The notes under the pieces were generated by a model, which searched no databases, was not told where the DNA came from, and saw nothing but the letters and a program-made list of their open reading frames with translations. Shown here in pieces: positions 11,686 to 58,597 of a stretch of 64,000 bases of DNA (the stretch's first letter is position 1; each line of letters begins with the position of its first letter). The DNA comes from Anaerolineae bacterium (GTDB taxonomy: Bacteria > Chloroflexota > Anaerolineae > UBA4142). The stretch is from positions 6,688-70,687 of the forward strand of contig DAOUAL010000065.1 in the NCBI GenBank assembly GCA_034433515.1. The letters run 5' to 3'. Position numbers and translations under genes: made by a program.

Positions 11686-11696
11686 ATTTCCTCCAA

Positions 11697-11768
11697 GACA
11701 GTGGTCAGTAGTCGGTGGACAGTGGTCAGTTTCCTGTTCACTGACCACTATCCACTGTCCCCTGTCCA
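11697..11768. repeat. Heptamer-periodic array with inverted halves (CAGTGGT.. then CACTGAC..); core hairpin 11717-11753
   Basis: GGACAGTGGTCAG / CTGACCACTATCC pair with 1 mismatch; fills the spacer between the membrane FeS gene and hdrA. Confidence 0.8.
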
Positions 11769-13718: not shown

Positions 13719-13738
13719 CGGAACTCTCCGTTCGTATC

Positions 13739-13801
13739 GGGGGCGAAGGACAGGTGCACGCTTTGCCCGACCACTCTAGCGAAGAAAGTTCCTTCGCCCC
13801 C
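13739..13801. other. Intercistronic hairpin, 12-bp perfect GC-rich arms (GGGGGCGAAGGA/TCCTTCGCCCCC), 39-nt loop
   Basis: Read directly between etfA stop and membrane FeS gene start. Confidence 0.6.
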
Positions 13802-13810
13802 ATGCCCTCG

Positions 13811-14782: not shown

Positions 14783-14815
14783 TGTTTCTCCTCTCAAAGT
14801 ATGAAAATTCCAACT

Positions 14816-15580
14816 TTACAGCACGCCGTGTTCCTTGAAAATTTCTACCAACCGCGTTGCCACCGTGTCGGCGTCGCCTTCGATCATCGTGGCGCGCGTG
14901 CTGACTTGAGGCTGGAACAATCGCACCGCGAGTGGCGCACCGGCAGTTTCCAATTCCATCGCCGGGAATTTTTCAAGGGTGGCACTTTTCATGGTCGCAC
15001 GGATTTTGCTGATGGGAACATAGCGCGGTGGTTTTTCGGCGGCTTGGATGCCCAGGACGGCTGGCAACATCACTTGCATTTCCGCGATCAAGCCGCCGGG
15101 AAATTCTTTGCGAATCTGGACGCTACCATCACAGACTATCACGCCGGAAACGTATCCGACATACGGCAGACCCAGATGCTCTGCCAGTTGCGGACCGACT
15201 GCGCCATCCAGATCGTTGTGGGCTTGGACGCCGGTGAGAATGAGTTCAGGGCGCAGGGTTTTGATAAAGTTGGCAAAGACACGTGCCAAGGCATGATTGT
15301 TCACTCCACGTTGCCAATTCCCAGTGAGTTTGACCAGCCGATCCGCACCTTTGGCAGCAGCGGTGAACAACACCTCATCAATACCTTCGATGTCTGGTGC
15401 AACAACCGTTACCGTGCCTGTGCCTTTCTCTTTGAGCAGAATCGCTTGTTCGATAGCGTGATCATCAAACTCGTTGAGTTTCAAGCGTAATGCGTCAGAG
15501 TCGAGTTTGGTGCCGCTGGCATCAATGACCAGTTCTTCAACGAGATCGGGAACCATCTTGATGGGGACGACTAGATTCAT
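14816..15580 (-). CDS. etfB: Electron transfer flavoprotein beta subunit
   Basis: MNLVVPIKMVPD.. typical EtfB N-terminus. ATG 15580 follows GAAGAGG. The upstream ORF extension only translates the octamer array. Confidence 0.9.
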   Translation of the reverse strand: MNLVVPIKMVPDLVEELVIDASGTKLDSDALRLKLNEFDDHAIEQAILLKEKGTGTVTVVAPDIEGIDEVLFTAAAKGADRLVKLTGNWQRGVNNHALARVFANFIKTLRPELILTGVQAHNDLDGAVGPQLAEHLGLPYVGYVSGVIVCDGSVQIRKEFPGGLIAEMQVMLPAVLGIQAAEKPPRYVPISKIRATMKSATLEKFPAMELETAGAPLAVRLFQPQVSTRATMIEGDADTVATRLVEIFKEHGVL

Positions 15581-15597
15581 CGTTATACCTCTTCGAG

Positions 15598-15725
15598 TTT
15601 CATCGTTGGGTCGTTGCATCGTTAGATCGTTGGGTCGTTGTATCGTTGCATCGTTAGATTGTTGCCTCCTTTGCCACGAGGTTGAACGAATCAACGCTGT
15701 AACGAACCGACGATGCAACGATTCG
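15598..15725. repeat. Octamer-periodic array (nnnTCGTT x8) followed by its inverse (nnCAACGn x5)
   Basis: Read directly; TCGTTGCATCGT (15611-15622 and 15643-15654) is the exact complement of ACGATGCAACGA (15710-15721). Confidence 0.85.
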
Positions 15726-15726
15726 C

Positions 15727-16926
15727 TTATCCGATAGACTCGGCTAACAATTCAACAATGTCGCGCACTTCCATCCCGCTTGCTTCGCGCACGGTCTTGA
15801 CCGCATCTTCAAAACGAGGTGGCTCGTACGGACACGCGACCACGAGGGTGGTTGCTTCTACGGCAATTGCTTCGCGGACGCGCCACTCTGAAGTTCGCGT
15901 GTGCGCCTTTTCCCAATGGAAACCTTCCAGCCACATACCGCCACCACCGCCGCCACAACACAAACTGGTTTCGCGCGTGTGCGACATTTCAACAAGGGTA
16001 ATGCCAGGAATGGCTTGCAACAGACGGCGGGGCTCGTCGTAAACCTTGTTGGCGCGACCCAAGTAACACGGATCGTGAAAAGTAATTTTGCCAGTCTCGA
16101 CCGGCTTGAGCATGGGCTGGAGTTGATCGAGGCGTTCGACTAGAAACTGGGTCACGTGGCGGACGGGATAAGTGATGTCGAGTGTGGGATAGACGTTTTT
16201 GAACGCGTTGAACGCGTGTGGATCCGTAGTGATGATTTCGTTGAAACTGTACTTGCGGAAGGCTTGCCCATTCTTGGTGGCGAGCATTTCAAATAAACCG
16301 CGTTCACCGGCAAGTCGTTGCGAATCACCGTCACCGACTTCTTCTGGACCCAGAATGGCAAAATCTACCTTGAGCGCGTTAAGAATCTTTGCCAAGGCAC
16401 GGCTGGTGGCTTGAACGCGTGGATGGTACGAAGCATAATCACCAACATACCACAACACGTCTGCCGATTTCTTGTCCTTGCCGAAAATGGGGACGGTGGC
16501 TTGGAGGCCCTTGGTCCAGTCCGCACGTTTGCGGGGCGATTGACCCAGGACATTGCCATAGCGTTGCGAGTTTTCGAGCGCGAGTTGGAGTTCGGCGGGG
16601 ACTTGGGCGGCGAGGAGCATTTCTTCTTTGGCGCGCGTCATTAATTTCTCGGTGAGCGGAATGCCGGACGGGCAGACTTCGGTGCAGGCGTAACACGCGA
16701 CGCACATCCAAACGGTGTCCGTTTTCATCACGCGATCAAAAATTTCGGAACGCAAGGCGGCGATCATGCGCCCCGGCGGATAATCCATCACATAACCAAA
16801 GGGACACACCCCGCTACACATACCGCATTGCAAACACATGCGGATGCGTTCGCCGGTGGGCGGGGTTTGCAGACTGGTGTAGAACGCCTCGTTGAACGAA
16901 GGATTGGTTAGCGTAGGAATCGTCAT
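15727..16926 (-). CDS. Soluble HdrD/GlcF/DsrK-like FeS protein (2x[4Fe-4S] + 2 CCG domains)
   Basis: CLQCGMCSGVCP, CVACYACTEVCP, HDPCYLGR, CCGGGGG; clear paralog of residues ~270-649 of the 11769-13718 product; RBS GAGGAGG. Confidence 0.8.
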   Translation of the reverse strand: MTIPTLTNPSFNEAFYTSLQTPPTGERIRMCLQCGMCSGVCPFGYVMDYPPGRMIAALRSEIFDRVMKTDTVWMCVACYACTEVCPSGIPLTEKLMTRAKEEMLLAAQVPAELQLALENSQRYGNVLGQSPRKRADWTKGLQATVPIFGKDKKSADVLWYVGDYASYHPRVQATSRALAKILNALKVDFAILGPEEVGDGDSQRLAGERGLFEMLATKNGQAFRKYSFNEIITTDPHAFNAFKNVYPTLDITYPVRHVTQFLVERLDQLQPMLKPVETGKITFHDPCYLGRANKVYDEPRRLLQAIPGITLVEMSHTRETSLCCGGGGGGMWLEGFHWEKAHTRTSEWRVREAIAVEATTLVVACPYEPPRFEDAVKTVREASGMEVRDIVELLAESIG

Positions 16927-22195: not shown

Positions 22196-23662
22196 TCAAC
22201 AATGTTGTCTGAGCACTTGGACCACACTTCCTTGGGCATCTCGAATGGTGATTTGCAGTGGCATCTGCCCCGGTAAGGAATGCGTGGCGCAACCAAAACA
22301 AGGATCGTATGCGCGGAATGCCATCTCCACACGATTCAGGATACCTTCGCTGATGACCACGCCTTGTTTGATGAAACTCTGTGCCGCCTTTTTGATGCTC
22401 ATACTGATTGGTGCATAGTTGTTCGTCGTACCCACGATGAGATTCACTTTGGTGAGAATGCCACGCTCATCCGTCCAGTAGTGATGGGTCAACGTGCCGC
22501 GTGGCGCTTCGACAATGCCCACTCCTTCGGTTGGCGTCGCCGTCGGAATCGTGCGGAAATTATCCGAGGTGATTTCCGGATCGCTTGCCAATTCGACCCA
22601 GCGCTCCGCCGCGTACAGTAGTTCGATGAGGCGCGCCCAATGCGTGGCAAGGCGTTGATGCACCGGCTTGCCGCCGAGCGTCGCGTAGAATTTTTCGTAC
22701 TCGGCTTGCGCCAACGGGGTTGCCATCCCGTCCGCCGCATTCAAGCGCGATAGTGGTGTGGCGCAGTACACGCCGGACTCTTTGCCGTCCACAAAACCTT
22801 TCCAACCGATTTTCTTGAGGTACGGGAATTTCAGGTACGTCCACGGCTCCACGTGTTCGGCGATCCAATCGGTGTACTCGTTGGGCGCGTACTTGCCGAT
22901 CCGTTTGCCTTCCGGATCCACCACGCTGATGTTGCCCTCGTAAAAGTTCACGCGATTTCGATCGTCCACCATCCCGATGCTGTACGTCCGGTGAGTGTAG
23001 GCATCGCCCAGGATGAGATCCACGTATGCCTTGTTGCCCAACACAATATCGCTGAACAGTTTGAGCGAGAATTGTCCAAACTCGACTGCCCAATGACCCA
23101 TCTTGAGGATTTCGTCGCGTTGTTCGGCCGTGATGCCTTTGCTCAAGCCACCGGGAATCGAGGTGCAAGGATGCACTTTGCGCCCACCAATCATTTCGAT
23201 GACGGTGTGCCCGGCTTTACGCGCTTGAATCACCTTGCCACCAATTTCCAGTCCGACTTTGTGTATCACGCCCAGAATGTTGCGCTCGGCGACCGGCGCA
23301 TCGGGTCCCATCACAAAATCGGGGCCGCCCAGGGCGTAGAAATGAGTGGCGTGATCGGTAACGTAGAACGCGCTGTACAACAATTCACGCAAAAGTTTGG
23401 CAGGGCGCGGTGGGTCAACGTGATAAACGGCATCGCATGCTTTTGCCGCCGCCATATGATGGGCTTCCGGACAAACACCGCAGATGCGTCCGGTCAGCAC
23501 CGGCATTTCTTCCACCGGTCTGCCCACGCAAAATTGTTCAAAGCCACGCAGTTCTGGAATTTGAAAGTACGTGTTGGCGACGTTGCCATTGTCATCCAAA
23601 AAAATTTCGATCTTGCCATGACCTTCCAGCCGTGTAATCGGATCTATGGTGATGCGTTGCAT
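22196..23662 (-). CDS. mvhA: [NiFe]-hydrogenase large subunit, MvhA-like (group 3c type)
   Basis: N-terminal RICGVCPEAHH and C-terminal DPCFGCATH Ni-binding motifs; sits with mvhD/mvhG/hdrABC. Confidence 0.9.
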   Translation of the reverse strand: MQRITIDPITRLEGHGKIEIFLDDNGNVANTYFQIPELRGFEQFCVGRPVEEMPVLTGRICGVCPEAHHMAAAKACDAVYHVDPPRPAKLLRELLYSAFYVTDHATHFYALGGPDFVMGPDAPVAERNILGVIHKVGLEIGGKVIQARKAGHTVIEMIGGRKVHPCTSIPGGLSKGITAEQRDEILKMGHWAVEFGQFSLKLFSDIVLGNKAYVDLILGDAYTHRTYSIGMVDDRNRVNFYEGNISVVDPEGKRIGKYAPNEYTDWIAEHVEPWTYLKFPYLKKIGWKGFVDGKESGVYCATPLSRLNAADGMATPLAQAEYEKFYATLGGKPVHQRLATHWARLIELLYAAERWVELASDPEITSDNFRTIPTATPTEGVGIVEAPRGTLTHHYWTDERGILTKVNLIVGTTNNYAPISMSIKKAAQSFIKQGVVISEGILNRVEMAFRAYDPCFGCATHSLPGQMPLQITIRDAQGSVVQVLRQHC

Positions 23663-23664
23663 AA

Positions 23665-24660
23665 CTATTCTCCTTCAACCTTGCCATTCCAGGCACTTTT
23701 GCTGGCGCGCAGCAGGGAACCCGCCATTCCAAAACGATAAAACATGCCGGCCGGGTCAGGGATGCCATCCAAAATCTTTTCGATCTCTTTGGGATCGCGT
23801 GAGTCTATGACCGAGGCAACCGCGCTCAACAAGCGTGCCCCTTGATCAAGCGTGCCTTCGGTGGGACCGTAGCAACCCACACAGGGCATCCCGGCAGTAG
23901 GGCAAGCCGCTCCACACCCACTGCGCGTGGCAGAGCCATTGCACAAGATACCTTGCTCCAACAAACAGACTTCTGGATCAGGTTTGAAATCTTGAATGCG
24001 AAGGAATTGTTTGATCTTTTTCTCACTGCGCGTTCGTTTGCATTCTTCGCACACGCTCGATTGTCCTGCACCGATCACAGCCCCTTTGGGGGGTAATTCG
24101 GCTTTGCCTTGCAACACTTGGATCACCAGATCAATCACCGCCGCAATCTGATGCGATTCCGGCGGACAGCCCGGCATATAGTAATCTACCGGCACTACTT
24201 GATTGAGCGACTTGACGACCGGGTACATTTCCGGAATCGTGACTTGACCCTCGGGCGCATTCCAACTCGAGTGTGGCAAGACGTGATTGGGATTGTCAGT
24301 CGAAAGGGTGTTGTACACGGTGTCGAAGATGGCTTGCTTGGAGGAAAGATTGCCGAGCGCCGGAATGCCACCCTCGGTGGCGCAGGCACCAAACGCCACC
24401 AGGATTTGCGATTTACGTCGGAGCAAGCGTGCGAGGTGGGCGTTCTCGTCATTGCGAATCGCGCCATTGAACAAGGTCAGCAAGATGGACTTGTCTTCCA
24501 TCGCTTCCACGTCTTTGTATTTGGCGTCCATAGCGACGGGCCAAAAGACCACCTCAAAGTTGGCATCTACATCCAAGATTTTTTCGTGGATGTTGAGGAC
24601 GGCGATCTCGCAACCGCCACACGATGCTGACCAATACATTGCGAACTTGGGCTTGCTCAT
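23665..24660 (-). CDS. mvhG: [NiFe]-hydrogenase small subunit, MvhG-like (no Tat signal)
   Basis: MSKPKFAMYWSASCGGCEIA..; ATG 24660 after GGAGG, ATGA overlap with mvhD stop. The longer ORF to 24819 is an Arg-rich spurious extension. Confidence 0.85.
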   Translation of the reverse strand: MSKPKFAMYWSASCGGCEIAVLNIHEKILDVDANFEVVFWPVAMDAKYKDVEAMEDKSILLTLFNGAIRNDENAHLARLLRRKSQILVAFGACATEGGIPALGNLSSKQAIFDTVYNTLSTDNPNHVLPHSSWNAPEGQVTIPEMYPVVKSLNQVVPVDYYMPGCPPESHQIAAVIDLVIQVLQGKAELPPKGAVIGAGQSSVCEECKRTRSEKKIKQFLRIQDFKPDPEVCLLEQGILCNGSATRSGCGAACPTAGMPCVGCYGPTEGTLDQGARLLSAVASVIDSRDPKEIEKILDGIPDPAGMFYRFGMAGSLLRASKSAWNGKVEGE

Positions 24661-25148
24661 ACGTGCGCCTCCTTCCCGACAGGTTGCGGGTGTTTTTCCT
24701 CTGCGCCGTGCGGCCGTTTTCCGTCGGCTTTCCAGTTCAACGGACCCAAGGCGCGTACATCCTCCACCATCTTGGTCGCCTGTTCGGCAAAGTAGGCGCC
24801 TTCGGCGGCACTCGCCCAAATCAGTTTCAGCCGTTCGGGCTCAATGCCGAGTTGGGTGATCAGACGTTTGAGCAACAGATAGCGGCTTTGAGTTTTATAG
24901 TTCTGCTCTAAATAGTGACAATCGCCGGGATGACAACCGCTAATCAGGACCCCATCGGCGCCGGAGGCAAATGCTTTCAGTACGAAGGTGGGGTCTAGCC
25001 GCCCGGAACACATCAAACGAATCAGGCGGAGATTGGGCGGGTATTTCATCCGCCCCAATCCTGCCATATCTGCCGCGCGATAACTGCACCAGTTGCAGGT
25101 AAAACCGATGATTAAGGGTTCAAATTTTTCAGCCATAGTTCTCTCCAT
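24657..25148 (-). CDS. mvhD: MvhD (methyl-viologen-reducing hydrogenase delta subunit) family protein
   Basis: IIGFTCNWCSY..AG....YP.N...IR..CSGR......L.AF..GADGVL..GCH.GDCHY signature. Confidence 0.9.
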   Translation of the reverse strand: MERTMAEKFEPLIIGFTCNWCSYRAADMAGLGRMKYPPNLRLIRLMCSGRLDPTFVLKAFASGADGVLISGCHPGDCHYLEQNYKTQSRYLLLKRLITQLGIEPERLKLIWASAAEGAYFAEQATKMVEDVRALGPLNWKADGKRPHGAEEKHPQPVGKEAHV

Positions 25149-25186
25149 TTTTCCCTCGTTTGTTCAGATGGAAGAGGGCAAGTCGT

Positions 25187-25246
25187 GACGCGGGAGCAGT
25201 CTGGGAGATGCGGACCCTCGTCAGTAGCGCATGCTACTCCCGCGTC
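25187..25246. other. Intercistronic hairpin (10-bp perfect arms GACGCGGGAG/CTCCCGCGTC, nested AGTAGC/GCTACT stem)
   Basis: Read directly between hdrA stop and mvhD start. Confidence 0.55.
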
Positions 25247-25251
25247 CTCCT

Positions 25252-27279
25252 TCACACCGGGATGGGTTCCAATGCAGTGATGGGAACACCGTTGGGGAGC
25301 AACAGACCCGTTAATTGCGCCATCACTTGTTGATTGCTAAAGACGGTGCCGCGAATGGCGCCGGCCGGGCACGCGGCAACACACGTGCCACATCCCTGAC
25401 ACAATGCTGGGTTCACCTCCGAGTAAGCACGCGAGCCGTTCTGTTTTTCAACAAATGTAATTGCATTGAACGGACAGAGATTATTACAGATGCGACAGCC
25501 GGAACATTTCTCTTTATCAATCTCTGCCCGCACCGGTTCCAGCGCGATTTCTCTTTGTTGAATCTTGCCGATGACCCGGGCTGCTGCGGCTGCGCCTTGG
25601 GCAACCGCCGCTGGAATATCTTTGGGTCCCTGCGCACAGCCGGCGATATAGATGCCTTCCGTCATCGTCGCCACCGGATCGAGTTTGGGATGCTTTTCGA
25701 TAAACCAGCCGTTCATACTGCACGAGATCCCAAACAGTTGTGCAACTTGCTTGGCATCGCGGCGTGGCTCTAGCGCGACGGACAGGATGACCATATCTAC
25801 CGGGATACGCCGCTGTTTGCCGATGAGGGTATCTTCGACTTGGATGATCAGTTTGCCTTCCTCGCCCGGCAAACGGGCGGCATCGGTTACTTCGGCAACG
25901 CGCCCCCGTACGAACAAGGTACCTTCTTCCAGCACCCGTTGATAAAACTCGTCATAGTCTTTGAACGCCGTGCGAATATCCATATAAAAGTTGTACACGG
26001 TGGCGCCGGTTTTTTCCTTGACCAGATGCGCAAATTTCAAACTCTGCATACAACAAATGTTGGAGCAGTAATTGTTGTACCGCTTGTCCCGGCTACCGAC
26101 GCAATGAATGATGCCCACCGTTTTGGGTACAGTTACGCCATCGCGCAAAACCACTTTGCCGCCGGTGGGTCCCGCCGCATTCGTCAAGCGTTCAAACTCG
26201 AGACTGGTGAACACGTTGGCAAGCCGACCATAGCCGTACTGCGGAATGCGGCGCGGATCAAAGAGATCGTACCCGGTTGCCAAGATGATGTTGCCCACTT
26301 GGAGCGTGATCGTTTCATCGCGTTGTTTGAAATCAATCGCGCCGGTTGGACAGAATTTTTCGCACGCCTTGCAGGTGCCTTTTTGGAAATAGGTGCAGTT
26401 TTCGCGATCAATCACCGGATATTTGGGGACGGCTTGCGGGAAGGGTTTATAAACCGCCTTGCGATAACCCAGCCCGGCTTCGAAAACTTGGTCCACGACT
26501 TTTTTGGGACACTTGTCTTGACACACGCCGCACCCGTTGCACAAATCGGTGTTGATGTAGCGGGCTTTCTTTTTCACCGTCACGGTGAAATTGCCGACAT
26601 AGCCATCTACATTGGTTACTTCGCTGTAACTGAGCAACGTGATGTTGGGATGATTACCCACCGAGACCATCTTGGGGGTGAGAATACACGCGGAACAGTC
26701 GAGCGTGGGGAAGGTTTTATCGAACTGCGCCATATGTCCGCCGATCGAAGGTTCACGCTCGACGAGGTACACCGGCGTGCCGCTGTCTGCGATTTCCAGG
26801 GCGGCTTGAATGCCGGCAACGCCTCCGCCAACGATCAGGGTAGCCGGATGAATAGGGACGCGCAATGGTTCCAAGGGTTCGTGATATTGAACACGTTCCA
26901 CGGCGCCGGCAATCAACGCCATGGCTTTTTCGGTGGCGGCGAGGGGATCGGTATGCACCCAGGAGACTTGTTCGCGAATCGAAACCAGTTCGCACAAATA
27001 GCCATTCAAGCCGGCGCGCGCGCACGCATTGCGAAAGGTTTGTTCGTGCAGGTGGGGCGAACAGGCGGCAACGACGACGCGCGTCAACCCTAGTTCTTTA
27101 ATGTCCTTTTGAATCATCTCTTGGCCCGGGCTGGAGCACATGAATTTGTAATCGCGTGCCACGACTACACCGCGATCTTTCAGACGTTCGCCAGCCCAGC
27201 GGGCGGTATTTTCGCAATCAACCATTCCATTGATATTACTGCCACAATGGCAAACGTACACACCAATGCGTTGAGTCAT
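25252..27279 (-). CDS. hdrA: Heterodisulfide reductase subunit A (paralog 2)
   Basis: MTQRIGVYVCHCGSNING, HCVGSRD, C-terminal ferredoxin motifs; highly similar to the 9661-11685 product along its full length. Confidence 0.9.
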   Translation of the reverse strand: MTQRIGVYVCHCGSNINGMVDCENTARWAGERLKDRGVVVARDYKFMCSSPGQEMIQKDIKELGLTRVVVAACSPHLHEQTFRNACARAGLNGYLCELVSIREQVSWVHTDPLAATEKAMALIAGAVERVQYHEPLEPLRVPIHPATLIVGGGVAGIQAALEIADSGTPVYLVEREPSIGGHMAQFDKTFPTLDCSACILTPKMVSVGNHPNITLLSYSEVTNVDGYVGNFTVTVKKKARYINTDLCNGCGVCQDKCPKKVVDQVFEAGLGYRKAVYKPFPQAVPKYPVIDRENCTYFQKGTCKACEKFCPTGAIDFKQRDETITLQVGNIILATGYDLFDPRRIPQYGYGRLANVFTSLEFERLTNAAGPTGGKVVLRDGVTVPKTVGIIHCVGSRDKRYNNYCSNICCMQSLKFAHLVKEKTGATVYNFYMDIRTAFKDYDEFYQRVLEEGTLFVRGRVAEVTDAARLPGEEGKLIIQVEDTLIGKQRRIPVDMVILSVALEPRRDAKQVAQLFGISCSMNGWFIEKHPKLDPVATMTEGIYIAGCAQGPKDIPAAVAQGAAAAARVIGKIQQREIALEPVRAEIDKEKCSGCRICNNLCPFNAITFVEKQNGSRAYSEVNPALCQGCGTCVAACPAGAIRGTVFSNQQVMAQLTGLLLPNGVPITALEPIPV

Positions 27280-27280
27280 T

Positions 27281-28261
27281 TTATTTCTCCTCCGGCATCA
27301 CTGGCATCGGGAGTGCTTCTTTCGATTTGTGGGATTTGCGGGCGAGCGGCTCTTCCGCCGGCGGCGGGACTTGGACGCCGATGCGTGATAACGCCGGGCG
27401 CGCATCCACCACTTCGGCGCCAATCCCCAACGTTGCCGCATCCAACCCGAATGCCAAGCCCATCATCTGGGTAAAGTACAGCACCGGCATCTGATAATTG
27501 GTTTTGTAGTACCGATTCATCGCGCCTTGAAAACCATCGAGGTTCAATTGACACATCGGGCAAACGGTGGCGATGAGATCGGCGTTGTAATCGGCGGCAC
27601 CCTTGACCAATTGATGAATCAAATCAAAGGCCACCGATTCGCTGATCTGGGTCATATGCCCGCCGCAACAATGCGCCTTCATGGGATAATCCACCACTTC
27701 GGCACCCAGGGTCTTGAGCAGTTTATCGAGCGCGGTGGGATATTCCGGATCATCAATCTGCCCATAAAATGCCGGGCGCCCAATCAAGCAGCCATAGTAC
27801 GGCGCAATGCGCAGTCCTTTGAGGGGCTTGGTCACGCGTTGGGCAATGGCGGCATAGCCCACATCGTTGACAAGTACATCCAACAAATGGCGTGTCTTGA
27901 TGGTGCCGGGTTGGTAACTCAATCCGCCTTCAGCGAGCGCGGTGTTTACTTTGGCGGCAAGCGATGCATCTTCGCCGAGATACTTGTCGGCTTTGCTCAA
28001 ATTGAGATAGCACGCACTACACGGTGCAATCATTTCGCGATAGCCATTCATCTTGGACGCCAACGCCAGACTGCGGGCGATCAGGGCGTACGCCGCCATC
28101 CGGTTGAGCGCGATATATTCGGTGGCACCGCAACAGTTCCAATCATCTACCTCAACAAGTTCAATGTCGAGGGCTTGCGCGGCGGCGAGCGTAGATTGCC
28201 AGTAAGGATAACCCGCCGCGCCTTTTTCCAATGAACAGCCGGGATAGATCAGATACTTCAT
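27281..28261 (-). CDS. hdrB: Heterodisulfide reductase subunit B
   Basis: MKYLIYPGCS, DDWNCCGA, AHCCGGH (two CCG domains). Confidence 0.9.
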   Translation of the reverse strand: MKYLIYPGCSLEKGAAGYPYWQSTLAAAQALDIELVEVDDWNCCGATEYIALNRMAAYALIARSLALASKMNGYREMIAPCSACYLNLSKADKYLGEDASLAAKVNTALAEGGLSYQPGTIKTRHLLDVLVNDVGYAAIAQRVTKPLKGLRIAPYYGCLIGRPAFYGQIDDPEYPTALDKLLKTLGAEVVDYPMKAHCCGGHMTQISESVAFDLIHQLVKGAADYNADLIATVCPMCQLNLDGFQGAMNRYYKTNYQMPVLYFTQMMGLAFGLDAATLGIGAEVVDARPALSRIGVQVPPPAEEPLARKSHKSKEALPMPVMPEEK

Positions 28262-28857
28262 GCGTTACCTCCCAGGATGTGCGCGTCGTCTTGTGCTTCC
28301 AATTCTTTGGCTTTGGCAAGAATCGCTTTCAAACCGTCTATCCCTTTGATGCGTTTGGGGGTGAAACTTAAACGCCCTTTGGTGACCATACTGATGCCCA
28401 TATCGGCGATTTTGAACACGCCAAACGGATTGTGCTTGAGCATATGCCGCGACATCAAGCCGAGTTCAAACGCGCGTCCGTAACTCTCGACGGTGGAGAC
28501 AAAGGTCTTGGAGAAATCGGGGGCGATGGATTCGTCAAACAATTGAGTTTTGACCGAGAGACGTTTCAGGGTGTACATCAAATCGGTAACATGGACTTGT
28601 TGGGGACACCGCACCATGCAATAGTAACACGAGACACAGAACCATGGGGTGTTGCTACGCAGGACGGCTTCTTTCATCCCGGCGCGCACCATCGCAAAGA
28701 TTTCGCGAGGGGTATGTTCCATATCTGAGCCAGAGGGACATGAGCCACCGCACGTACCACATTGAATACACATGACGAGGTGTGGTTCGCCGGGTGTGGC
28801 GGCAACAACTTGATCCAAAAAGGTAGTTGGCGGTGCATTGGGCGCAATCGCGTGCAT
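28258..28857 (-). CDS. hdrC: Heterodisulfide reductase subunit C
   Basis: CIQCGTCGGSCP and CVSCYYCMVRCP; ATG 28857 is 8 nt after GGAGG (ORF track start 28875 overlaps that RBS). Confidence 0.85.
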   Translation of the reverse strand: MHAIAPNAPPTTFLDQVVAATPGEPHLVMCIQCGTCGGSCPSGSDMEHTPREIFAMVRAGMKEAVLRSNTPWFCVSCYYCMVRCPQQVHVTDLMYTLKRLSVKTQLFDESIAPDFSKTFVSTVESYGRAFELGLMSRHMLKHNPFGVFKIADMGISMVTKGRLSFTPKRIKGIDGLKAILAKAKELEAQDDAHILGGNA

Positions 28858-29032
28858 AACGTTTTCCTCCATCAAAATCTATAGACCAGTGACTTGCGGG
28901 ATTAATCGGAAACCCAAAGAGGGACGTAACTTCGTTGTTTCGTCCCGCCGCTTGTCTCTAGTGTATGCTATCTTGGCGCGACTGACTATCGGTAAAATTC
29001 TGTATTTTGGAATTACAGAGTTTCTGTATCCA

Positions 29033-40548: not shown

Positions 40549-41181
40549 TTACTGCTTCCGATTTCGTTCCACGTACTCGCGCAAGCCGTGAAGATCGTAC
40601 GAGGTTTGACCGGCGACAAGTTTCTCGCGCAAGCGTGCCTCGCGTTCAAAACGATCCTGAGATGCTTTAAGCACCTGTGCTATCCGTTCGCGCTTGACGC
40701 ACACGGCGCCATCCGTATCTAGGATGACAATATCGTTCGGCGCGATGGTGGTACCCCCCACTGTAACTGGCACATTCAGTTCGCCGATTTTCGTTTTACT
40801 CGCGCCCTTGACGCGGATAAAGCGCGTCCAAATCGGCAGGCCCAGTTTCACGAGTTCTTCGACATCGCGCACCGCCGCATCCACCAGAATCGCCGCCGCA
40901 CCGTGCACCTTAACTTGCGTTGCCAACAATTCACCAACCAGTGCGACCGGGGCTGGTTCCGGCATTGTCAGTACCAACACATCGCCGGGTTGAATGTGTT
41001 CAATGACCGCGTGCACCATCAAATTATCATCTTGACCACACAGCACGGTGCGCGCAGGCCCCGCCGTGCGACTGCCGGGGATGATTTGAATCAGTGGCAC
41101 ATCAATTAAACCTTCGCGCCCGGCCGCTTCGTAAACCGTGGCGACCCCCAGTTCGCTCAAGCGTTTCATTTCATCGCTCAT
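40549..41181 (-). CDS. RraA-family protein, probable HMG/CHA-type pyruvate aldolase
   Basis: ATVYEA..R.G......I.P......GPA.TV, GD.LV......A..GEL......GAA...VD...RD motif order of RraA/LigK/GalC family; ATGA coupling. Confidence 0.75.
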   Translation of the reverse strand: MSDEMKRLSELGVATVYEAAGREGLIDVPLIQIIPGSRTAGPARTVLCGQDDNLMVHAVIEHIQPGDVLVLTMPEPAPVALVGELLATQVKVHGAAAILVDAAVRDVEELVKLGLPIWTRFIRVKGASKTKIGELNVPVTVGGTTIAPNDIVILDTDGAVCVKRERIAQVLKASQDRFEREARLREKLVAGQTSYDLHGLREYVERNRKQ

Positions 41182-41894
41182 AAACTTTTCACCACCCACG
41201 GCAGCGTGCGTTGCAATGCTTCGGCATATTTGATTTCTTCCCTTCCGGAAATTCGGCGGGCGTGATTGCCACGCCGTGCGGCGAGTTCGGTATAGTACGT
41301 TTGCAAATAACTTTGCGCTTGCATTGCTTGCATCGCCTTGATTTTCTTGTCCATCACCGGCGTGATGTCAACAAAAGTATTCGGTACAAATTCGCACAAC
41401 TCCGGTTGATGTGGCTCGAACAGATACAAGTCTGGGGGAACGATTCGCTTGAACGCGCTTGCTACACCCGCACCCGATGCGAGCAAGCGCGCTTTGTGCA
41501 CGGCTTGATAGGCAACCGGATGATCGGGGTTGAAGGGATCCACCGGTGTGTGCGTGAGCACAATGTCCGGCTGTAGTTCGCGGAAGAGTTCGATCAACTG
41601 CTCCATCGCCGCATCGGTGAGGGTGAGTGGATAATCGCCCACGTCGAGGGCGCGAAATGTTGCGCCGACGGCTTCGGCAGCGGCGGTGGCTTCCGCGTGA
41701 CGAATGCGCTTGACGTTTTCGATGGTTTGTCCCGGCTCTTTCCACAATTCGCCGGACTCGCCGCGTTCGCCGTACGATAAGGCGACGACGGTGGCGGTGC
41801 CGCCTTGTGACGTAATCACCGCAATCGTTCCCGCCGCGCGCCACACAAAATCGGCGGAATGCGCGCCGACGACGAGGAGATTCTTTTTGCTCAT
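41178..41894 (-). CDS. PIG-L/LmbE-family hydrolase (GalB-like candidate 4-oxalomesaconate hydratase)
   Basis: LLVVGAHSADFVW...ALSYGERGES...THTPVDPFNPDH; ATGA overlaps at both ends. Confidence 0.7.
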   Translation of the reverse strand: MSKKNLLVVGAHSADFVWRAAGTIAVITSQGGTATVVALSYGERGESGELWKEPGQTIENVKRIRHAEATAAAEAVGATFRALDVGDYPLTLTDAAMEQLIELFRELQPDIVLTHTPVDPFNPDHPVAYQAVHKARLLASGAGVASAFKRIVPPDLYLFEPHQPELCEFVPNTFVDITPVMDKKIKAMQAMQAQSYLQTYYTELAARRGNHARRISGREEIKYAEALQRTLPWVVKSL

Positions 41895-43030
41895 TCGGAC
41901 ACCCTTTTGATTTCGTCGTTCACATATTCCATATCGAACCACCATTTGTTCTGCGGATGGGCTTGACCCGGCTTGAGCAGACCAGCGGCTCTAATCGCAA
42001 TAGTTTGAGCCAGCCGCGAATGCATCACCGCGTGGCGTACCAAATTATGAGGCAGGGTGGTGGGATTGCTCCACGGACAACTCTTGACGCACCGATTACA
42101 CATCGTTCCTTTTTTATTGGTGAAATTGAAACTGGCACAGCGTCGTACATCCAACTTCCATGTTTCGTAACCGTTGTACATCACTTTATCGCCGGACGAG
42201 ATCGCATGGCTGGGACAATTCTCTGCACAAATTTTGCATTTCTGACAAAAACTCTGCAAGCCGAAATCAATCGGTTTGTCCGGCACCAGCGGCATATTCG
42301 TCAAGATGGCGGCGGCTTTGAACGCGAGACCCCAAAATGGATTCAGAATAATTCCAACGCGGCTTACTTCACCGATGCCTGCCGCAAGCAACAAGGGTGG
42401 GAATAATACGGAATAACGATTGACGAACGAAGGTCCGTACTGCGCTGATGCATCCCAGCCTAACCGTCGAATATAATTTGCCATCGTTTCGACAACCATG
42501 CCAAGGTGTTGGTACGCTTGGAAACTAATCGGATCACCGACCCAATCCGATCCTTGCGAAGCGTGCATCGTGTTCCAATCTTTGCGCATGACGATGATGA
42601 TGGCATTCTCGTACTGGGGTTCAATCGGATTACCTTGTTTGTCGTGGCTCTAGTAGGCGGACAGCGGTACTTGGCAGGTGCCAACGATGTCGGCTTTCAA
42701 GAAATAGCCGGTCGCTTTGATGTGGCGTGTCAGAACTTGTGGGATTGGTGCGTGTTCCGGTGCGCCCGGCTTGGCTGGCATCAAGGCGATGTGATCAATA
42801 ACATCTTTTTGTGCCGCCGAGAGTGGATATTTGCCGGGCAAGATTTTCTGCACACCTTTTTGAACGACAGGCCCATATTCACCGCGTGCGGCCAGACCAT
42901 ACGCCGTGTTGCGCAGATCAATGCGTTGGACATTATCGGTGATAAGGTTGGTGGGCTTGTCCACGCGCTTGAGGCGATCCATTGGAAAAGGTCCCAATTG
43001 TTCTTGACTGTGCAAAATATCTGATTTCAT
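41891..43030 (-). pseudogene. Reductive dehalogenase (RdhA)-like gene, cytoplasmic type, interrupted by one in-frame TAG at 42650-42652
   Basis: ORFs 42650-43030 and 41891-42589 share a frame (1140 nt). FCQKCKICAENCPSHAI and CNRCVKSCPWSNP are RdhA-type FeS motifs. No twin-arginine signal. Confidence 0.65.
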
Positions 43031-43041
43031 TGCTTGCTTAG

Positions 43042-43096
43042 GGAATGTGGCGATGACGGATAAGGTCGGCGTTGATGTTAGTCATCGCCACATTCC
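43042..43096. other. 16-bp perfect inverted repeat GGAATGTGGCGATGAC / GTCATCGCCACATTCC, 23-nt spacer
   Basis: Read directly between SBP stop and rdhA-like start. Confidence 0.6.
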
Positions 43097-43118: not shown

Positions 43119-44483
43119 TTAGCGTTTGTCAAACGCGGGAGCCGGGTAAGCCAGTTTGGCAGTGGCGTGTTCCAGAGGCCAAACGATTTCGAGTTTGCCC
43201 TTCTGCCATTGCACCATCGGGTTCAGCACTTTGCCTGTGCCATCCGCGTTGAAGGTGACTGGCCCGATCACTGTCGTCATATTGGTAGCGGCAATGGCAT
43301 CACGAATTTTATCGCGATCCAATGTGCCGGCTTTTTCGATCGCGGCGGCGAGAATTTGGACGCAGGCATACGCAGGACCGGTCAACAAATCGGCGGGGCG
43401 CTTGAATTCTGCTTGGTACGCCGCGTTGAGTTTATCCACCCCCGGGAATTTCATTGCATTGTGCCAACCCGGGAAGATCGCCACATAGTCACCGTTCTTG
43501 CCGAGGTTGGTGCTCCACGTCACATTTTCCGGTGCGCGGATGATCAAACTAAACTTGGGCGTCCAAGCATTTTCGACCATTTGCTTGAACAGAGCTTCGC
43601 CGCTGGGTTGATTGGGCAACGCCAGAAGCAGCTCTGCCCCAGCCGACTTGGCTTTGAGAATCATGGCGGTAAAGTCGAGATTGCCAACGGCGTACTGCTC
43701 GTCCACCACCACGGTATATCCGTTCTTGGCGGCATTTTCTTTCCACAACGCTTGTTGCTCAAGCCCCCAATCCGATTTTTCTGCAAAGATCGCAACTTTG
43801 AGTGGTCGTTGACCTTCGGGGATCAGCGCGTTGAGAATTGTGAAGGTATCCGGTCCTTGTTGCACCGATTTGGGGAACGGTGAGAAGACATACTTGTAGC
43901 CCTTTTGGTGAATCGCGTTCAGCGCGAAAGCGATACCGAGGTACGGAACCTTGTTCTTTTCGGCGATGGCGGTTGTCGCGACATGCATATCACTGGCGGC
44001 ACCTCCTAGGTACGCTACCACTTTTTGATCGGAGAACAGGGTCTCTAACTTGCTCACCGCTTTGGTGGGGTCAGATTCATCATCGTACACGGTCAGGCGT
44101 AACGGAATCTTTTTATCGTATTCCTTGACATAGATTCCGCCCGTTGCATTGATGTCATTCACTGCATAGGTGTACCCTGGCTTGACTTGTTGACCCAGAG
44201 AACCAAATTTGCCCGTGAGTGGGATGGACGCGCCGATCTCGATGTAAGCAGGTGCCGGCTTGGGCGTGGGTGCCGCAGTGGGGGGAACCGTTGGGGGCTT
44301 GGTGGCTGGCACCGGCGTGGGCGCAACGCTAGAAGCAGAACTCGAGGCTGGCGGTTGAGTCGGTGCCGCTGTTGGCGGAACTGGCGTGGGGGCTGGCGTT
44401 GGCGTGGCACACGCAGCGATAACGACCACAAGAGCCACGAGGCAAACGATCCGTACGACCCAATTCAAATGACGCTTGTTCAC
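43119..44483 (-). CDS. ABC transporter substrate-binding lipoprotein (LivJ/HAAT-type, family 4 SBP)
   Basis: GTG 44483 is 7 nt after GAGGAGGAAAG; signal + lipobox VIAAC; long P/T/A linker; then Peripla_BP_6-like body (IGASIPLTGKF..). Confidence 0.85.
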   Translation of the reverse strand: MNKRHLNWVVRIVCLVALVVVIAACATPTPAPTPVPPTAAPTQPPASSSASSVAPTPVPATKPPTVPPTAAPTPKPAPAYIEIGASIPLTGKFGSLGQQVKPGYTYAVNDINATGGIYVKEYDKKIPLRLTVYDDESDPTKAVSKLETLFSDQKVVAYLGGAASDMHVATTAIAEKNKVPYLGIAFALNAIHQKGYKYVFSPFPKSVQQGPDTFTILNALIPEGQRPLKVAIFAEKSDWGLEQQALWKENAAKNGYTVVVDEQYAVGNLDFTAMILKAKSAGAELLLALPNQPSGEALFKQMVENAWTPKFSLIIRAPENVTWSTNLGKNGDYVAIFPGWHNAMKFPGVDKLNAAYQAEFKRPADLLTGPAYACVQILAAAIEKAGTLDRDKIRDAIAATNMTTVIGPVTFNADGTGKVLNPMVQWQKGKLEIVWPLEHATAKLAYPAPAFDKR

Positions 44484-44617
44484 AGTTCTTTCCTCCTCTT
44501 CGTTAAGAATGGTAGACTGACATTGTCCACTGGTGTTCGACAAACGAGTGTTTTGTGATCTTCTATCCCCCCTTTCCCTTTTGGATGGCATTGCAGAGAT
44601 GCCATCACGTTCGGGTT

Positions 44618-45562
44618 TCAAGCCAGTTGCACTTGTTTTTTGACTGCGCCCCGGCTCAATCGTTTTTGAATCTTGCTCCAGATGCTCACAAAGCCGCCGG
44701 GCAAGAACAAGACCACGAGAATAAAGAGTGTGCCGAAGATAATCACGTGGAATTCCGCAAAGTTCAGTGCCAAGAGTTCTCGCAGGATGACGAAAAACAC
44801 CGCACCGATGACGGGACCTACAATCGTGCCCACGCCACCGATGTATGCCATCATCATCGAATCAAACGTCCATTCCGGACCAAAGGTCAATTGCGGATAG
44901 TAACCGACGTGATAAAAAGCAAAGGCACCGCCGGTCAGCCCGCCAAAGAACGCGCTAATGCTCAACGCAAGTAGTTTGTGCTTTAACGCGCTGACCCCCA
45001 GCGATTCCGCCGCATCTTCTTCTTCGCGGACGGCCATAATTCCCAGCCCAAGCCAGGAATTCACCAGGACATAGGCGGTTCCAACCGTGAATAGCGCTAC
45101 GCCCAAGAACAAATAGTATCGCGGAACAAGCGAATACACTGCCAAGTCTTGGACGGGGATCGAGGAGATGGTCGAGAAGGTGTTTCCTACTGTGATGTAG
45201 AGAATCTGCGAAAGGGCGAGCGTGCCGATGGCAAAGTACACCCCTCTCAGGCGGAAGGCAGGCACACCGATGATGAGCGCCAATGCGACTGCAACCAAGG
45301 CACCGACCAACATGGTGGGAAGGATATGCCATCCCGCAAACCACAGCATTCGTGTAACGAGCGTTCCCGAGCCAAAAAATGCGGCATGACCCAGGTTCGT
45401 TTGTCCGCTAAAGCCGCCCAAGATGTTCCAACTCGAAGCGATGGACACATACAAAAGGACATAGACGGCGAGGTTGAGTATGCTCTCTGCTGTGATGAAC
45501 ATTGGCACGCTGGCGAGAAGTACAATGAGAAGGATGACTAGAATGGCTTGGATTTTATTCAT
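44618..45562 (-). CDS. HAAT-family ABC permease (LivM-type)
   Basis: 314 aa polytopic; GQTNLGHAAFFG.G motif. Confidence 0.85.
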   Translation of the reverse strand: MNKIQAILVILLIVLLASVPMFITAESILNLAVYVLLYVSIASSWNILGGFSGQTNLGHAAFFGSGTLVTRMLWFAGWHILPTMLVGALVAVALALIIGVPAFRLRGVYFAIGTLALSQILYITVGNTFSTISSIPVQDLAVYSLVPRYYLFLGVALFTVGTAYVLVNSWLGLGIMAVREEEDAAESLGVSALKHKLLALSISAFFGGLTGGAFAFYHVGYYPQLTFGPEWTFDSMMMAYIGGVGTIVGPVIGAVFFVILRELLALNFAEFHVIIFGTLFILVVLFLPGGFVSIWSKIQKRLSRGAVKKQVQLA

Positions 45563-45565
45563 GGG

Positions 45566-46450
45566 TTATCCTTCCTTTGTACCGAACAAACCTTGCGGTC
45601 TAAAAATCAAAACCAGGAGAAACAGAACGAGTCCGATGACCTCCTTGTATGTGAGACTGAGAAAATGACCTGTTGCCGATTCGGTCAAGCCCAGGATGAT
45701 GCCACCCACAAAAGTTCCCGTAATGCTGCCCAAACCGCCCAGCACCATCACGACCAAACTTTTGAGCGTCCAACTCATCCCCATCCCCGGATCAATCGAA
45801 TAGCCCACGCTGACTAGCGTGCCGGCTATCCCCGCCAAAGCGGCGCCCATCACAAACGACAAGAGAGAGACCTGTTGAATGTCAATCCCCATCAACGTGG
45901 CGGCTTCCCAGTTTTCAACGGTGGCACGCAACGCTTTGCCGGTGTAGGTTCGGCGCAAGAACAGTTGCAAGCCAACGATCAGTACGAACGCGATGACCAT
46001 GCTGGCAACCCGGACGAGCGGGAAACGCACCTCCGCCAAAGTGAATACAGCGCCAGAATACGATGCTGTGATGCTCCGCGTGTCTGCCGTCCAAAGCCGA
46101 AGGGCGATATTCTGCAAAATCAGCGATAGCCCAAAGCCGACCAGGAGGGTGTTTTGTATCTTGACTCCTTCGGTGAGTTTGACCATCCGACTAAAGAGCA
46201 ATCTGTAGAAAATCGCTCCGATCACGAACAACGAGACAATCGCCATGGGCAGAGAAACAAAGGGGTCAATTTTCCAAAGTGTAAAGAGCCAGAAACTGAC
46301 ATAGCCCCCTAACATCAAGAATTCGCCGTGGGCAACATTGAGAAATTTGGTAACGCCAAACACCAGGGATAGGCCGACTGCCGCCAAGCCGTACAACGCG
46401 CCCATTAGAATTCCGTAAACCAAGTTTTGAGCGAGACCTTCAAACATCAT
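45566..46450 (-). CDS. HAAT-family ABC permease (LivH-type)
   Basis: 294 aa polytopic; FLNVAHGEFLMLG motif. Confidence 0.85.
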   Translation of the reverse strand: MMFEGLAQNLVYGILMGALYGLAAVGLSLVFGVTKFLNVAHGEFLMLGGYVSFWLFTLWKIDPFVSLPMAIVSLFVIGAIFYRLLFSRMVKLTEGVKIQNTLLVGFGLSLILQNIALRLWTADTRSITASYSGAVFTLAEVRFPLVRVASMVIAFVLIVGLQLFLRRTYTGKALRATVENWEAATLMGIDIQQVSLLSFVMGAALAGIAGTLVSVGYSIDPGMGMSWTLKSLVVMVLGGLGSITGTFVGGIILGLTESATGHFLSLTYKEVIGLVLFLLVLIFRPQGLFGTKEG

Positions 46451-47157
46451 TGGGAATCTCCTAGGTACGCACTGCGGACAGATTCGAAGGACAACAGGTC
46501 ATCGCCAGTCCCTTGCCCAACGATCCGACCGTTCTCGATCACGTACGCCCGGTTCGTTAATTCCAAAGCCGCCCGGACGTTTTGTTCGATCAATAAGACG
46601 GTTACGCCTTGCCGATTGATTTCCTTGATCATCTGAAACATTTGCTCGACCAGAATCGGCGCGAGACCGAACGAAGGTTCATCCAGCATCAAGAGTCTGG
46701 GCTTGGACATTAACGCTCTGCCGATGGCGAGCATTTGGCGTTCGCCGCCGCTCAGTGTGCCCGCGCGTTGATGTTTGCGTTCTTCCAGTCGTGGAAAGAT
46801 GCTGTACACCCACTTGAGGGTTTCGTCTTTCGCCTTCCGAGCTTGTGCAACGAATGCCCCCAATTCCAGATTTTCCAAGACACTCATCGCGGTAAAGATC
46901 TTGCCGCCTTCAAGCACCTGAGAGATGCCCAGTTCTACAATTTTGTGCGCTGGCATTTTGCCCAGATCGTTTCCATCGAAAATAACACTGCCTGCGGCGG
47001 GCTTGAGCAATCCGCTGATGATGCGCAACGTCGTGGTCTTGCCAGCGCCGTTGGGTCCTACCAAGGCAACCAGTTCTCCGTCGTTGACTTGCATCGAAAT
47101 GCCCCATAGCGCTTGGAGGTCTTCGTAATAGGCGTCAATGGCTTCGAGTTTAAGCAT
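46447..47157 (-). CDS. ABC ATP-binding protein (LivF-type)
   Basis: Walker A GPNGAGKTT, signature LSGGERQ, Walker B LLMLDEPS. Confidence 0.9.
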   Translation of the reverse strand: MLKLEAIDAYYEDLQALWGISMQVNDGELVALVGPNGAGKTTTLRIISGLLKPAAGSVIFDGNDLGKMPAHKIVELGISQVLEGGKIFTAMSVLENLELGAFVAQARKAKDETLKWVYSIFPRLEERKHQRAGTLSGGERQMLAIGRALMSKPRLLMLDEPSFGLAPILVEQMFQMIKEINRQGVTVLLIEQNVRAALELTNRAYVIENGRIVGQGTGDDLLSFESVRSAYLGDSQ

Positions 47158-56378: not shown

Positions 56379-57370
56379 ACGTTTGATGTGAAATGACCTC
56401 TGGACATCTCTGCCCAAGCGGCGTAAACGATTACCATCTTAGGCGGGAGGGGTCTCGTGTACATTTCGATCGCAGACTTGATGCTGGTTACCTTTGTGCT
56501 GGTCGATAACTGGTATCAACGCAAAGGCGCACGTTGGCTCGGCCGCACCATCGGGTCAAAGCCGGAATTCAGTGACAGCGAGATGCTGACCTTGATGTTG
56601 GCGATTGACTTTTTCGGGTTACCAGCGAACGGCGTTTTGTGGAATTCGTCCGCGCCAACTATTTGGCCTTGTTTCCCAAGTTACTCGATCAGAGCCAGTA
56701 CAATCGGTGCGCGCGTAGTTTGCGATACTTGCTGGACGCGCTCCGGAAAGAGTGGGCTGCCGAGTTGGGCCTCCAGTTTGAACGACCCTTTCTGCTTGAT
56801 ACGACGCCCGTCATCGCTGTCGGCTCTCGGCGGGACAAGCGCCACAGTAACTTTCGTGGTTCAGCCAACGGCGGCTATTGTGCGGCGCGGCGGCTGAAAT
56901 ACTTTGGCTACAAGTTGGTCATGCTGACGACGCTGGCTGGCACGCCGTATGCGTTTGAACTCGTGCCCGCCAATACTGACGAGCGCGACGCCGCAGACGA
57001 GATTCTGGAGACCCTTCCGCCCGACAGCAATGCTTGGTCGGACAAGGGTTTCATCGGCGAAGAATGGCAAGCCGCCTGGTCTCGGCAAGGGGGCCGCGTC
57101 TGGACGACCAAACGCGAGAATCAAAAGGTTCAGAATCCCCTCGAGTTTGACCGTCTGCTGAACCGCGTCCGCGAGCGCATCGAAGGCGCGTTTGATATTT
57201 TGAAAGAAGGCGGTCGCTTGGTGGAACATACCTTGGCCCACACGGTCGGGGGACTCTACGCGAATTATCGCCAAGATTGCCAGTGTGATCTTCCGCCTAT
57301 TCTTCCGCCGATTCTTCAGCATCGACGTCTTGACCTACACGGTCAGCACGTGACATTTCACATCAAACGT
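56379..57370 (+). mobile_element. IS982-family insertion sequence, transposase inactivated by at least 2 frameshifts
   Basis: Perfect 17-bp terminal IRs ACGTTTGATGTGAAATG (56379-56395) / CATTTCACATCAAACGT (57354-57370). Tnp pieces in 3 frames (FVLVDNWY, LLDTTP, YFGYKL, SDKGF, RERIEGAF, then ARIIAKIASV..IDVLTY). Confidence 0.8.
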
Positions 57371-57408
57371 ATGATACTCCGTAAATCCCCAAGATTTCGG
57401 AGGTCTCC

Positions 57409-58597
57409 ATGAACAAACGCCACATCAAGCATACCAAACCTGTCGATTCTGCACAAGTTCGCTCGGCATTGATCAGTCTCCTCATAGACACCCTCCCATT
57501 GGACTTGAAGGTGCGTGATCTGGATGAAGAGACACGGGGACATTCTGTTGTATGCCTCGTTTCATCAAACGACGATTCAGCCTGTTTGGAACTGAGGGTC
57601 TCCTCGGGTACAACCACGCGCCATCATCTCACCGCTAACTTGGGCGATAGCCCGTGACCTGCGGCGATTGGAACAGCAACTGAATCAAGCGCTGCGCACT
57701 CCACTACCGCGTTCCTTTCGCCGACACTTGATAGTCGTCCGTTATGATGTAGCGCTTGGTCGAACTGTCGTATTACGGCAAACCGCACCGCCACCCGCAA
57801 GAGGTGCGCCGGGGTCCTGCCAAGGCAGGCACGACCTATTTTCATTCGTATGCTACGATTGCCGTCGTCCATGACGATCAACGCGATGAACGCGCCTTGA
57901 CGTTCATCTGGGCCAAAGAATCGCTGACGGCAGTCGTGCTCCGCTGGCTGAAATACGTGCGTTTATTGGGTCTGCAGGTGCGCGGGGTGTATTTGGACAA
58001 GGGTTTCGCACGGGTCGAGCTCTTTCGGCTCTTGCGACGACATTGCATCCCCTATGTCATTCCGGTGCCGCTATGCGGGCAAGGACTCAAAGTGCTCTGC
58101 CAGGGGCGACGCAGCGATCAGCGCCGCTACACCTTCAAGGCGGGCACGGCGGAAGCGTATATCACCGAGATTGTCCTGGTGCGGCGGTATCGTGCCGGGC
58201 GGTGCGGGTGGCATGGTGTAGATGGGTTGGTGTATGCGGGGTCTATCGCATCGAGCGGTGCGACCCTCATCAGGTGCATCAACTCTATAGTTGGCGGTTT
58301 GGCATTGAGAGTGGCTATCGGCAGAGGCACCACGTGCGTGCGCGCACCACGTCGCGTCATCCCGGATTGCACCTCCTCTTCGTTGGGTTGGCGTGGCTAA
58401 TCCTGAATTGCTATATGGCATTCCGCCAAGTCTGGTTGACGATACGGCACGCGGAGCGTGGGCATCGGGTTTACAAGGTCTGGCTGACGTTGCAACGCCT
58501 GGCGCGGCTATTGGTGCGCGTGATTGAGCAGTTATTGGGAACGCCACCGATGCACCAAGTTGCACATAGCAAAATCGAACTTGATCCAATTTCGTGA
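57409..58597 (+). mobile_element. Decayed IS4/ISH3-like DDE transposase gene (fragments in 4 frames)
   Basis: Fragments 57409-57657, 57668-57874, 57756-58400, 58043-58597; KAGTTYFHSYATIAVV, YLDKGF, YSWRFGIESGYR (YREK-type signature); element ends not identified. Confidence 0.65.

Follow-up and report, generated by a model that had tools for sequence, protein, structure and literature searches.

In the 64-kb stretch of DNA analyzed here (the window), it was found that an rdhA-like gene is interrupted by an in-frame amber codon, and this gene is very probably a young loss-of-function allele, or an incipient pseudogene, rather than a case of stop-codon recoding. A preliminary description of the same DNA had offered three explanations for the amber codon, namely that it arose recently by nonsense mutation, that it is a sequencing error, or that it is read through. 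The recent nonsense mutation is favored by the independent assemblies, by the use of TAG as a normal stop codon, and by a dN/dS value like those of the neighboring genes.

The interrupted reading frame

The reading frame lies on the minus strand of the window and has a single internal TAG in its 380 codons. Its translation runs from IVGTCQVPLSAY through the stop into SHDKQGNPIEPQYENAIIIVMRKDW, and the DNA around the stop is GCC TAC TAG AGC CAC, with the TAG at 42652-42650. Thus, translation bore out the 380-codon frame split by one in-frame TAG in the preliminary description, which did not state the strand. The features of the locus are as follows.

41891..43030, minus strand: rdhA-like gene, 379 sense codons and a terminal TGA, with one TAG inside
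42650..42652, minus strand: amber codon TAG (codon 127), ancestrally TAT (Tyr), changed by a T-to-G substitution on the coding strand
42736..42744, minus strand: junction of a 9-nt in-frame deletion (D-P-Q lost), an alignment gap relative to the nearest genome, L001
42212..42247, minus strand: first [4Fe-4S] motif CQKCKICAENCP, C262-x2-C265-x2-C268-x3-C272-P273, located 3′ of the TAG, with invariant Cys columns
42074..42139, minus strand: second Fe-S motif, C298 ... C311-x2-C314-x3-C318-P319, located 3′ of the TAG
41891..41894, minus strand: ATGA overlap of the rdhA TGA with the ATG of a PIG-L/LmbE-family gene (41178-41894)
43042..43096, minus strand: perfect 16-bp inverted repeat with conserved arms (43042-43057 and 43081-43096) and a 23-nt spacer

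When Tyr is restored at codon 127, residues 1-379 of the protein are recovered in one tblastn HSP, and the family comprises more than 1200 homologues at E<=1e-20. Thus, the frame is no chance ORF. Both FeS motifs, C262-C272-P and C311-C318-P, were located downstream of the TAG as had been described. The lack of a Tat signal also held true, since the N-terminus (MKSDILHSQEQLGPFPMDRLKRVDKPTN) has neither a twin-arginine motif nor a hydrophobic h-region.

In this uncultured Anaerolineae bacterium, a gene for a conserved RdhA-like enzyme, cytoplasmic and stand-alone with cobalamin and two [4Fe-4S] clusters, would have been inactivated recently. One T-to-G transversion changed the Tyr127 codon from TAT to TAG, so that translation should end after 126 residues. 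No active enzyme is expected, because the 126-residue peptide would contain neither the Fe-S motifs nor the equivalents of NpRdhA S422, Y426, and K488, and would also lack the cofactor-binding core. Basal near-cognate readthrough might still yield traces of the full-length protein. About 760 nt of mRNA would be left untranslated before the translationally coupled PIG-L gene, and this may have some polar effect on the ring-cleavage genes downstream.

The ancestral codon and the stop codon in assemblies

Is the stop codon shared with other members of the family? The rdhA-like family comprises more than 1200 clusters (90% identity) at E<=1e-20. The best 120 of these are single proteins of 365-413 aa with a query coverage of 94-100%, mostly from Anaerolineae and other Chloroflexota. 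Family members in JGI records are variously named 'reductive dehalogenase', 'epoxyqueuosine reductase', or 'ferredoxin'. The stop column is occupied by Tyr in all of the 29 aligned homologues (S-A-Y-Y-S-H-D-K-Q-G) and in 78 of 78 genome loci from Chloroflexota, Alphaproteobacteria, and other lineages, whose identity ranges from 35 to 95%. No in-frame stop was found in any of these 78 loci. The residue aligns with Y379 of NpRdhA. In the nearest genome, L001 (DAOTXS010000045, 95% amino acid identity), the sequence is TAC TAT AGC, versus TAC TAG AGC in the window. A degenerate pattern specific for TAG had no matches among JGI metagenome contigs, and the TAN version of the pattern matched 40 of them (25 with TAC and 15 with TAT). 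From these alignments, the TAG arose from an invariant Tyr codon by one T-to-G substitution specific to this lineage. The preliminary description had aligned the TAG with a Tyr codon that differs by one substitution, and the universal Tyr, the correspondence to NpRdhA Y379, and the TAT codon in L001 all agree with this. The proposed check of orthologues for a natural gene boundary revealed none; the orthologues are single proteins, and a boundary at the TAG was rejected as no relative is split there. The sole broken copy among the 78 loci is L027 (10001-11126 of CAWGGJ010000011.1), in which tblastn gave two overlapping HSPs in different frames near residues 315-326. That copy thus seems to have a frameshift, or else an indel error from long reads.

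The window is 100% identical to a MAG contig, JBBIMV010000015.1 (NCBI GCA_037444225.1). The gene calls of both NCBI and Logan split the gene into two fragments, one of 110 aa ending at the TAG and one of 225 aa. Exactly these two fragments are on record from three contigs, each of which carries both.

NCBI contig JBBIMV010000015.1, 70,779 nt
Logan contig SRR11582170_9961, 27,888 nt
Logan contig of 71,082 nt

Searches for exact copies of the 232-aa and 126-aa fragments, taken as the longest ORFs, gave no match; the gene callers had used internal ATGs. Throughout the N-terminal fragment, the SRR11582170 contig matches the window in every base, and it has both the 9-nt deletion and the TAG. Logan uses a pipeline of its own and builds each assembly from one run; the TAG thus stands as the consensus of two or more assemblies, probably from two separate runs, although the NCBI and Logan assemblies may derive from the same libraries. 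No mention of the assembly, contig, or run accessions was found in the literature.

The consensus may conceal a mixed population. It is conceivable, albeit rather improbable, that TAT and TAG alleles coexist and that the assemblies report the TAG; this would be a sub-case of the nonsense mutation in which the allele is not yet fixed. The mutation is very young, and MAG consensus sequences hide minor alleles. On the other hand, two or three assemblies all have TAG, which is thus at least the majority allele where sampled, and a TAT allele with the 9-nt deletion of this lineage was not found in any collection searched.

It is much less likely that the organism truly has TAT or TAC and that the G is a consensus artefact of sequencing or assembly. 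The source is a metagenome-assembled genome, the change concerns one base, and the gene otherwise looks fully constrained. However, the identical TAG and 9-nt deletion are present in the SRR11582170 Logan assembly made with a different pipeline, and the same truncated products come from the third contig of 71,082 nt. In addition, the contig is not generally error-prone, since the 16 neighboring genes have no stop or frameshift. The same TAG was assembled independently by Logan at least once (SRR11582170), probably twice, which makes a random assembly error unlikely. A systematic error or a majority-allele artefact is also unlikely.

Age of the lesions and decoding of the TAG codon

The nonsense mutation seems to be accompanied by hardly any decay. 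Between the window and L001, the rdhA-like gene has a dN/dS of 0.060 with a dS of 0.287, and the dN/dS values of the 16 neighboring genes range from 0.013 to 0.114. Changes were polarized with L082 as a second sister and L085/86 as the outgroup. On the window branch, rdhA has 18 synonymous and 7 non-synonymous changes, versus 233 and 78 for the twelve non-transporter neighbors pooled (Fisher p=0.81). Given a dS of about 0.07 for the branch, neutral evolution may cover at most about 18% of it, as a rough bound. The window protein has 12 near-unique residues, and intact controls have 7-18; L233W is the only one at a 98%-conserved site. Thus, neither dN/dS, branch-polarized changes, nor family-unique residues gave a decay signature beyond the stop codon and the 9-nt deletion, and a long-standing pseudogene was rejected. 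The inactivation is probably recent, because the dN/dS of 0.06 is like those of the neighboring genes; judging from these substitution patterns, rdhA was under normal purifying selection until very recently.

The second lesion is the 9-nt deletion, which corresponds to the loss of one copy of a tandem 9-nt unit (CCCACAAGA/CCCACAAGT) found in relatives. It may have arisen by slippage, with the loss of a mostly conserved Asp-Pro. The three residues D-P-Q are kept in 74 of the 78 loci, including every relative of more than 40% identity, and the Asp-Pro is also present in NpRdhA (SDPGRN). The deletion is private to the lineage of the TAG allele. Two private lesions in rdhA and none in the 16 neighbors fit a real, incipient gene loss.

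May the TAG be decoded as a sense codon? Pyrrolysine insertion, an amber-suppressor tRNA, or efficient programmed readthrough would yield the full-length enzyme, but such recoding is highly unlikely. The frame is open for another 252 codons past the TAG with all motifs intact, and Tyr could in principle be restored if UAG were read by a near-cognate tRNA. However, TAG is an ordinary stop codon in this DNA. It terminates 14 of the 58 non-overlapping ORFs of the window (about 24%), including four genes of the same cluster (CHMI, CoA-transferase B, AFOR, and a 154-aa ORF) whose orthologues are equal or nearly equal to them in length. While UAG codons of pyrrolysine genes are conserved in orthologues and go with a pylTSBCD set in the genome, no TAG alleles were found in the relatives, and no other family member has a TAG at codon 127. 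An invariant Tyr hardly suggests a special amino acid. A search for pyl genes or a suppressor tRNA had been suggested; within the 64-kb window it came out negative, with no tRNA by ARAGORN and no Rfam family at the gathering threshold, and with nothing similar to pyl genes in Pfam scans of about 55 ORFs. Nor was a stable RNA structure found around or 3′ of the TAG, where 131 nt fold less stably than shuffled sequences (z=+1.21). Literature searches found no report of amber codons in rdhA genes. It is similarly improbable that UAG is read through at a useful rate by a near-cognate tRNA-Tyr or tRNA-Gln, or by an unrecognized suppressor or pyrrolysine system elsewhere in the genome. If so, full-length cytoplasmic RdhA, possibly of the wild type (Tyr), would still be made, and a cobalamin enzyme of Chloroflexota would be attenuated naturally by a leaky stop.

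The least likely reading, a functional split in which a 126-aa N-terminal chain and a C-terminal chain of about 225-232 aa assemble into an active enzyme, was rejected: gene callers do predict two ORFs and the first in-frame start past the TAG is an ATG 20 codons downstream, but the split is confined to one young lineage, none of the 78 genome loci is split (only L027 is frameshifted), neither candidate ATG is preceded by a Shine-Dalgarno-like sequence, and a restart would lose residues 128-147 with the invariant D130-K131-Q132-G133 of the nearly invariant SHDKQGNPI segment.

The gene cluster, the encoded protein, and known systems

The rdhA-like gene, probably lost by nonsense mutation, belongs to a long co-directional cluster of about 20 genes of catabolic character. 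The cluster starts with genes for AFOR, a nitroreductase-family protein, a 154-aa ORF, CoA-transferase A and B, and a ferredoxin (82 aa, separate from the rdhA-like gene, as is AFOR). A five-gene Liv-type ABC transporter follows in the middle and precedes the rdhA-like gene. After rdhA come PIG-L/LmbE, an RraA-like aldolase, an extradiol dioxygenase, CHMI isomerase, and Zn-ADH, and the cluster ends with a divergent IclR regulator, tannase, a SnoaL-like protein, and an FAD oxidase. With the overlap at 41891-41894 and the ring-cleavage-type neighbors, the earlier wording of an ATGA overlap within an aromatic-catabolism operon is a fair description. The gene order is common to the relatives L001, L082, and L085/86; in all of them, as in the window, the rdhA-like gene is located between the ABC transporter and the PIG-L, RraA, extradiol-dioxygenase, and CHMI genes. 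All of the 16 neighboring genes are intact and syntenic with those of L001, L082, and L085/86, and their lengths equal or nearly equal those of the orthologues. No second rdhA copy was found within the window by tblastn. With the rest of the cluster intact, the lesions may represent the incipient loss of a single accessory, dehalogenase-like step.

The inverted repeat lies in the intergenic region between the end of the binding-protein gene (43119) and the rdhA ATG (43030), ending 12 nt upstream of the latter. L001, L082, and L085 have kept its arms (GGAATGTGGCGATGAC ... GTCATCGCCACATTCC) but differ in the spacer, and L085 has one paired double change. The repeat could be an mRNA hairpin for processing or stability after the binding-protein gene or for translational control, or else a palindromic operator, for example for IclR. 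Next to it, the region 43119-47157 (ABC2, two permeases, and a substrate-binding protein) has a dS of 0.8-1.8 versus L001 and many replacements on the window branch, while the other cluster genes, including rdhA and ABC1, which flank the region, have a dS of 0.24-0.51. This comparison points to recombination as the way in which a divergent transporter cassette entered the operon, which is collinear elsewhere.

Some observations were made elsewhere in the window. Two HdrA-like flavoprotein/polyferredoxin genes with HdrB/C-like CCG-domain partners are found at 9661-16926 and 22196-28875. One set adjoins ETF alpha/beta genes, and the other adjoins genes for the large and small subunits of a [NiFe]-hydrogenase and a HycI-type maturation protease. 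These sets look like electron-bifurcation modules typical of an anaerobe, in contrast to the O2-dependent extradiol dioxygenase of the catabolic cluster. A DDE-family transposase gene (DDE_Tnp_1_3) is present at 56639-57412 on the plus strand, about 3.6 kb past the AFOR end of the cluster. The TAG stop codon of a GH31 glycosidase gene (1255-1257) is immediately followed in the same frame by the ATG of a transaldolase-family gene at 1258; this junction (1255-1260) was rejected as a split gene, because two unrelated families lie end to end.

What did the gene encode? With X at the stop position, the protein narrowly passes the NCBIfam model TIGR02486 'reductive dehalogenase' (165.4 bits versus a cutoff of 160.35). 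Residues 11-371 match residues 257-621 of NpRdhA, its catalytic domain (PDB 4RAS/6ZXU), with E=5e-83, and residues 142-343 match PceA (PDB 4UQU, 8Q4H) at about 1e-23. Pfam detects 4Fe-4S domains only (Fer4_7/Fer4_16). In an alignment of 30 sequences, all of the Fe-S Cys columns are invariant. S169, Y173, and K238 are equivalent to S422, Y426, and K488 of NpRdhA and are invariant in the rdhA-like family, so that the Tyr proton donor, which is Y246 in PceA, and its Lys partner are in place (Y173 and K238); the position of NpRdhA R552 is taken by a nearly invariant Asn (N302). In NpRdhA, S422, Y426, and K488 have been assigned to substrate-hydroxyl binding or to a proton-donor dyad (PMC7565698).

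The protein is predicted to be a stand-alone, cytoplasmic RdhA core, since it has no Tat or hydrophobic segment and ends where the reductase module of NpRdhA would start. By descent it is a member of the RdhA superfamily (TIGR02486), though not as a functional gene, the ORF being interrupted by the TAG at codon 127. Cobalamin binding and halide removal from an organohalide are putative activities based on homology, and literature searches found no biochemical data on this stand-alone clade. A respiratory RdhA was ruled out: the Tat signal is missing, as is an adjacent rdhB, and the neighbors are an ABC-transporter binding-protein gene and a PIG-L-family gene. The self-sufficient NpRdhA/BhbA architecture was also ruled out, as the protein ends at about residue 621 of the 704 of NpRdhA and has only Fer4 domains in Pfam.

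As a pseudogene, the nonsense-mutated copy is an ordinary one and of little consequence, since it is one lineage-specific loss of an accessory gene in one MAG. Tat-less, rdhB-less RdhA homologues have already been described in Chloroflexota. The 110-aa and 225-aa 'genes' annotated in GCA_037444225.1 should be regarded as fragments of a single gene. The stand-alone Tat-less RdhA-like family, rather than the stop codon, is the worthwhile biochemical target; it is large (>1200 clusters), strongly constrained (dN/dS about 0.06), and located in Anaerolineae within a conserved cluster for transport and ring cleavage.

Among known systems, the rdhA-like gene appears to be closest to the catabolic NpRdhA type, with a simpler architecture. 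It shares homology over the whole NpRdhA catalytic domain, both Fe-S motifs, the lack of a Tat signal and of an adjacent rdhB, and the S169, Y173, and K238 equivalents of S422, Y426, and K488. In contrast, the protein has 379-385 aa versus 704 aa for NpRdhA, lacking both the N-terminal duplicated, degenerate domain and the C-terminal NAD(P)H-oxidoreductase module; the substrate-hydroxyl ligand R552 is replaced with N302 in the family, and the window copy is interrupted by a stop codon. Thus, of the 'NpRdhA/BhbA type' proposed in the preliminary description, the catalytic-domain homology and the Tat-less character stand, while the reductase module and the N-terminal duplication are missing. PceA-type respiratory RdhAs have the same cobalamin/Fe-S core; however, the window gene has no Tat leader and no gene for an RdhB membrane anchor, and it is found in an uptake and ring-cleavage operon, not in an rdhAB(C/K) respiration locus. 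From marine Dehalococcoidia and Desulfobacula, RdhA homologues of the Tat-less, rdhB-less kind are known, e.g., DEH-C11 (PMC4959651). Going by their description, these resemble the rdhA-like gene in having two Fe-S motifs and neither Tat signal nor rdhB, and Dehalococcoidia relatives of 44-58% identity are among the genome loci; unlike them, the window copy is a pseudogene.
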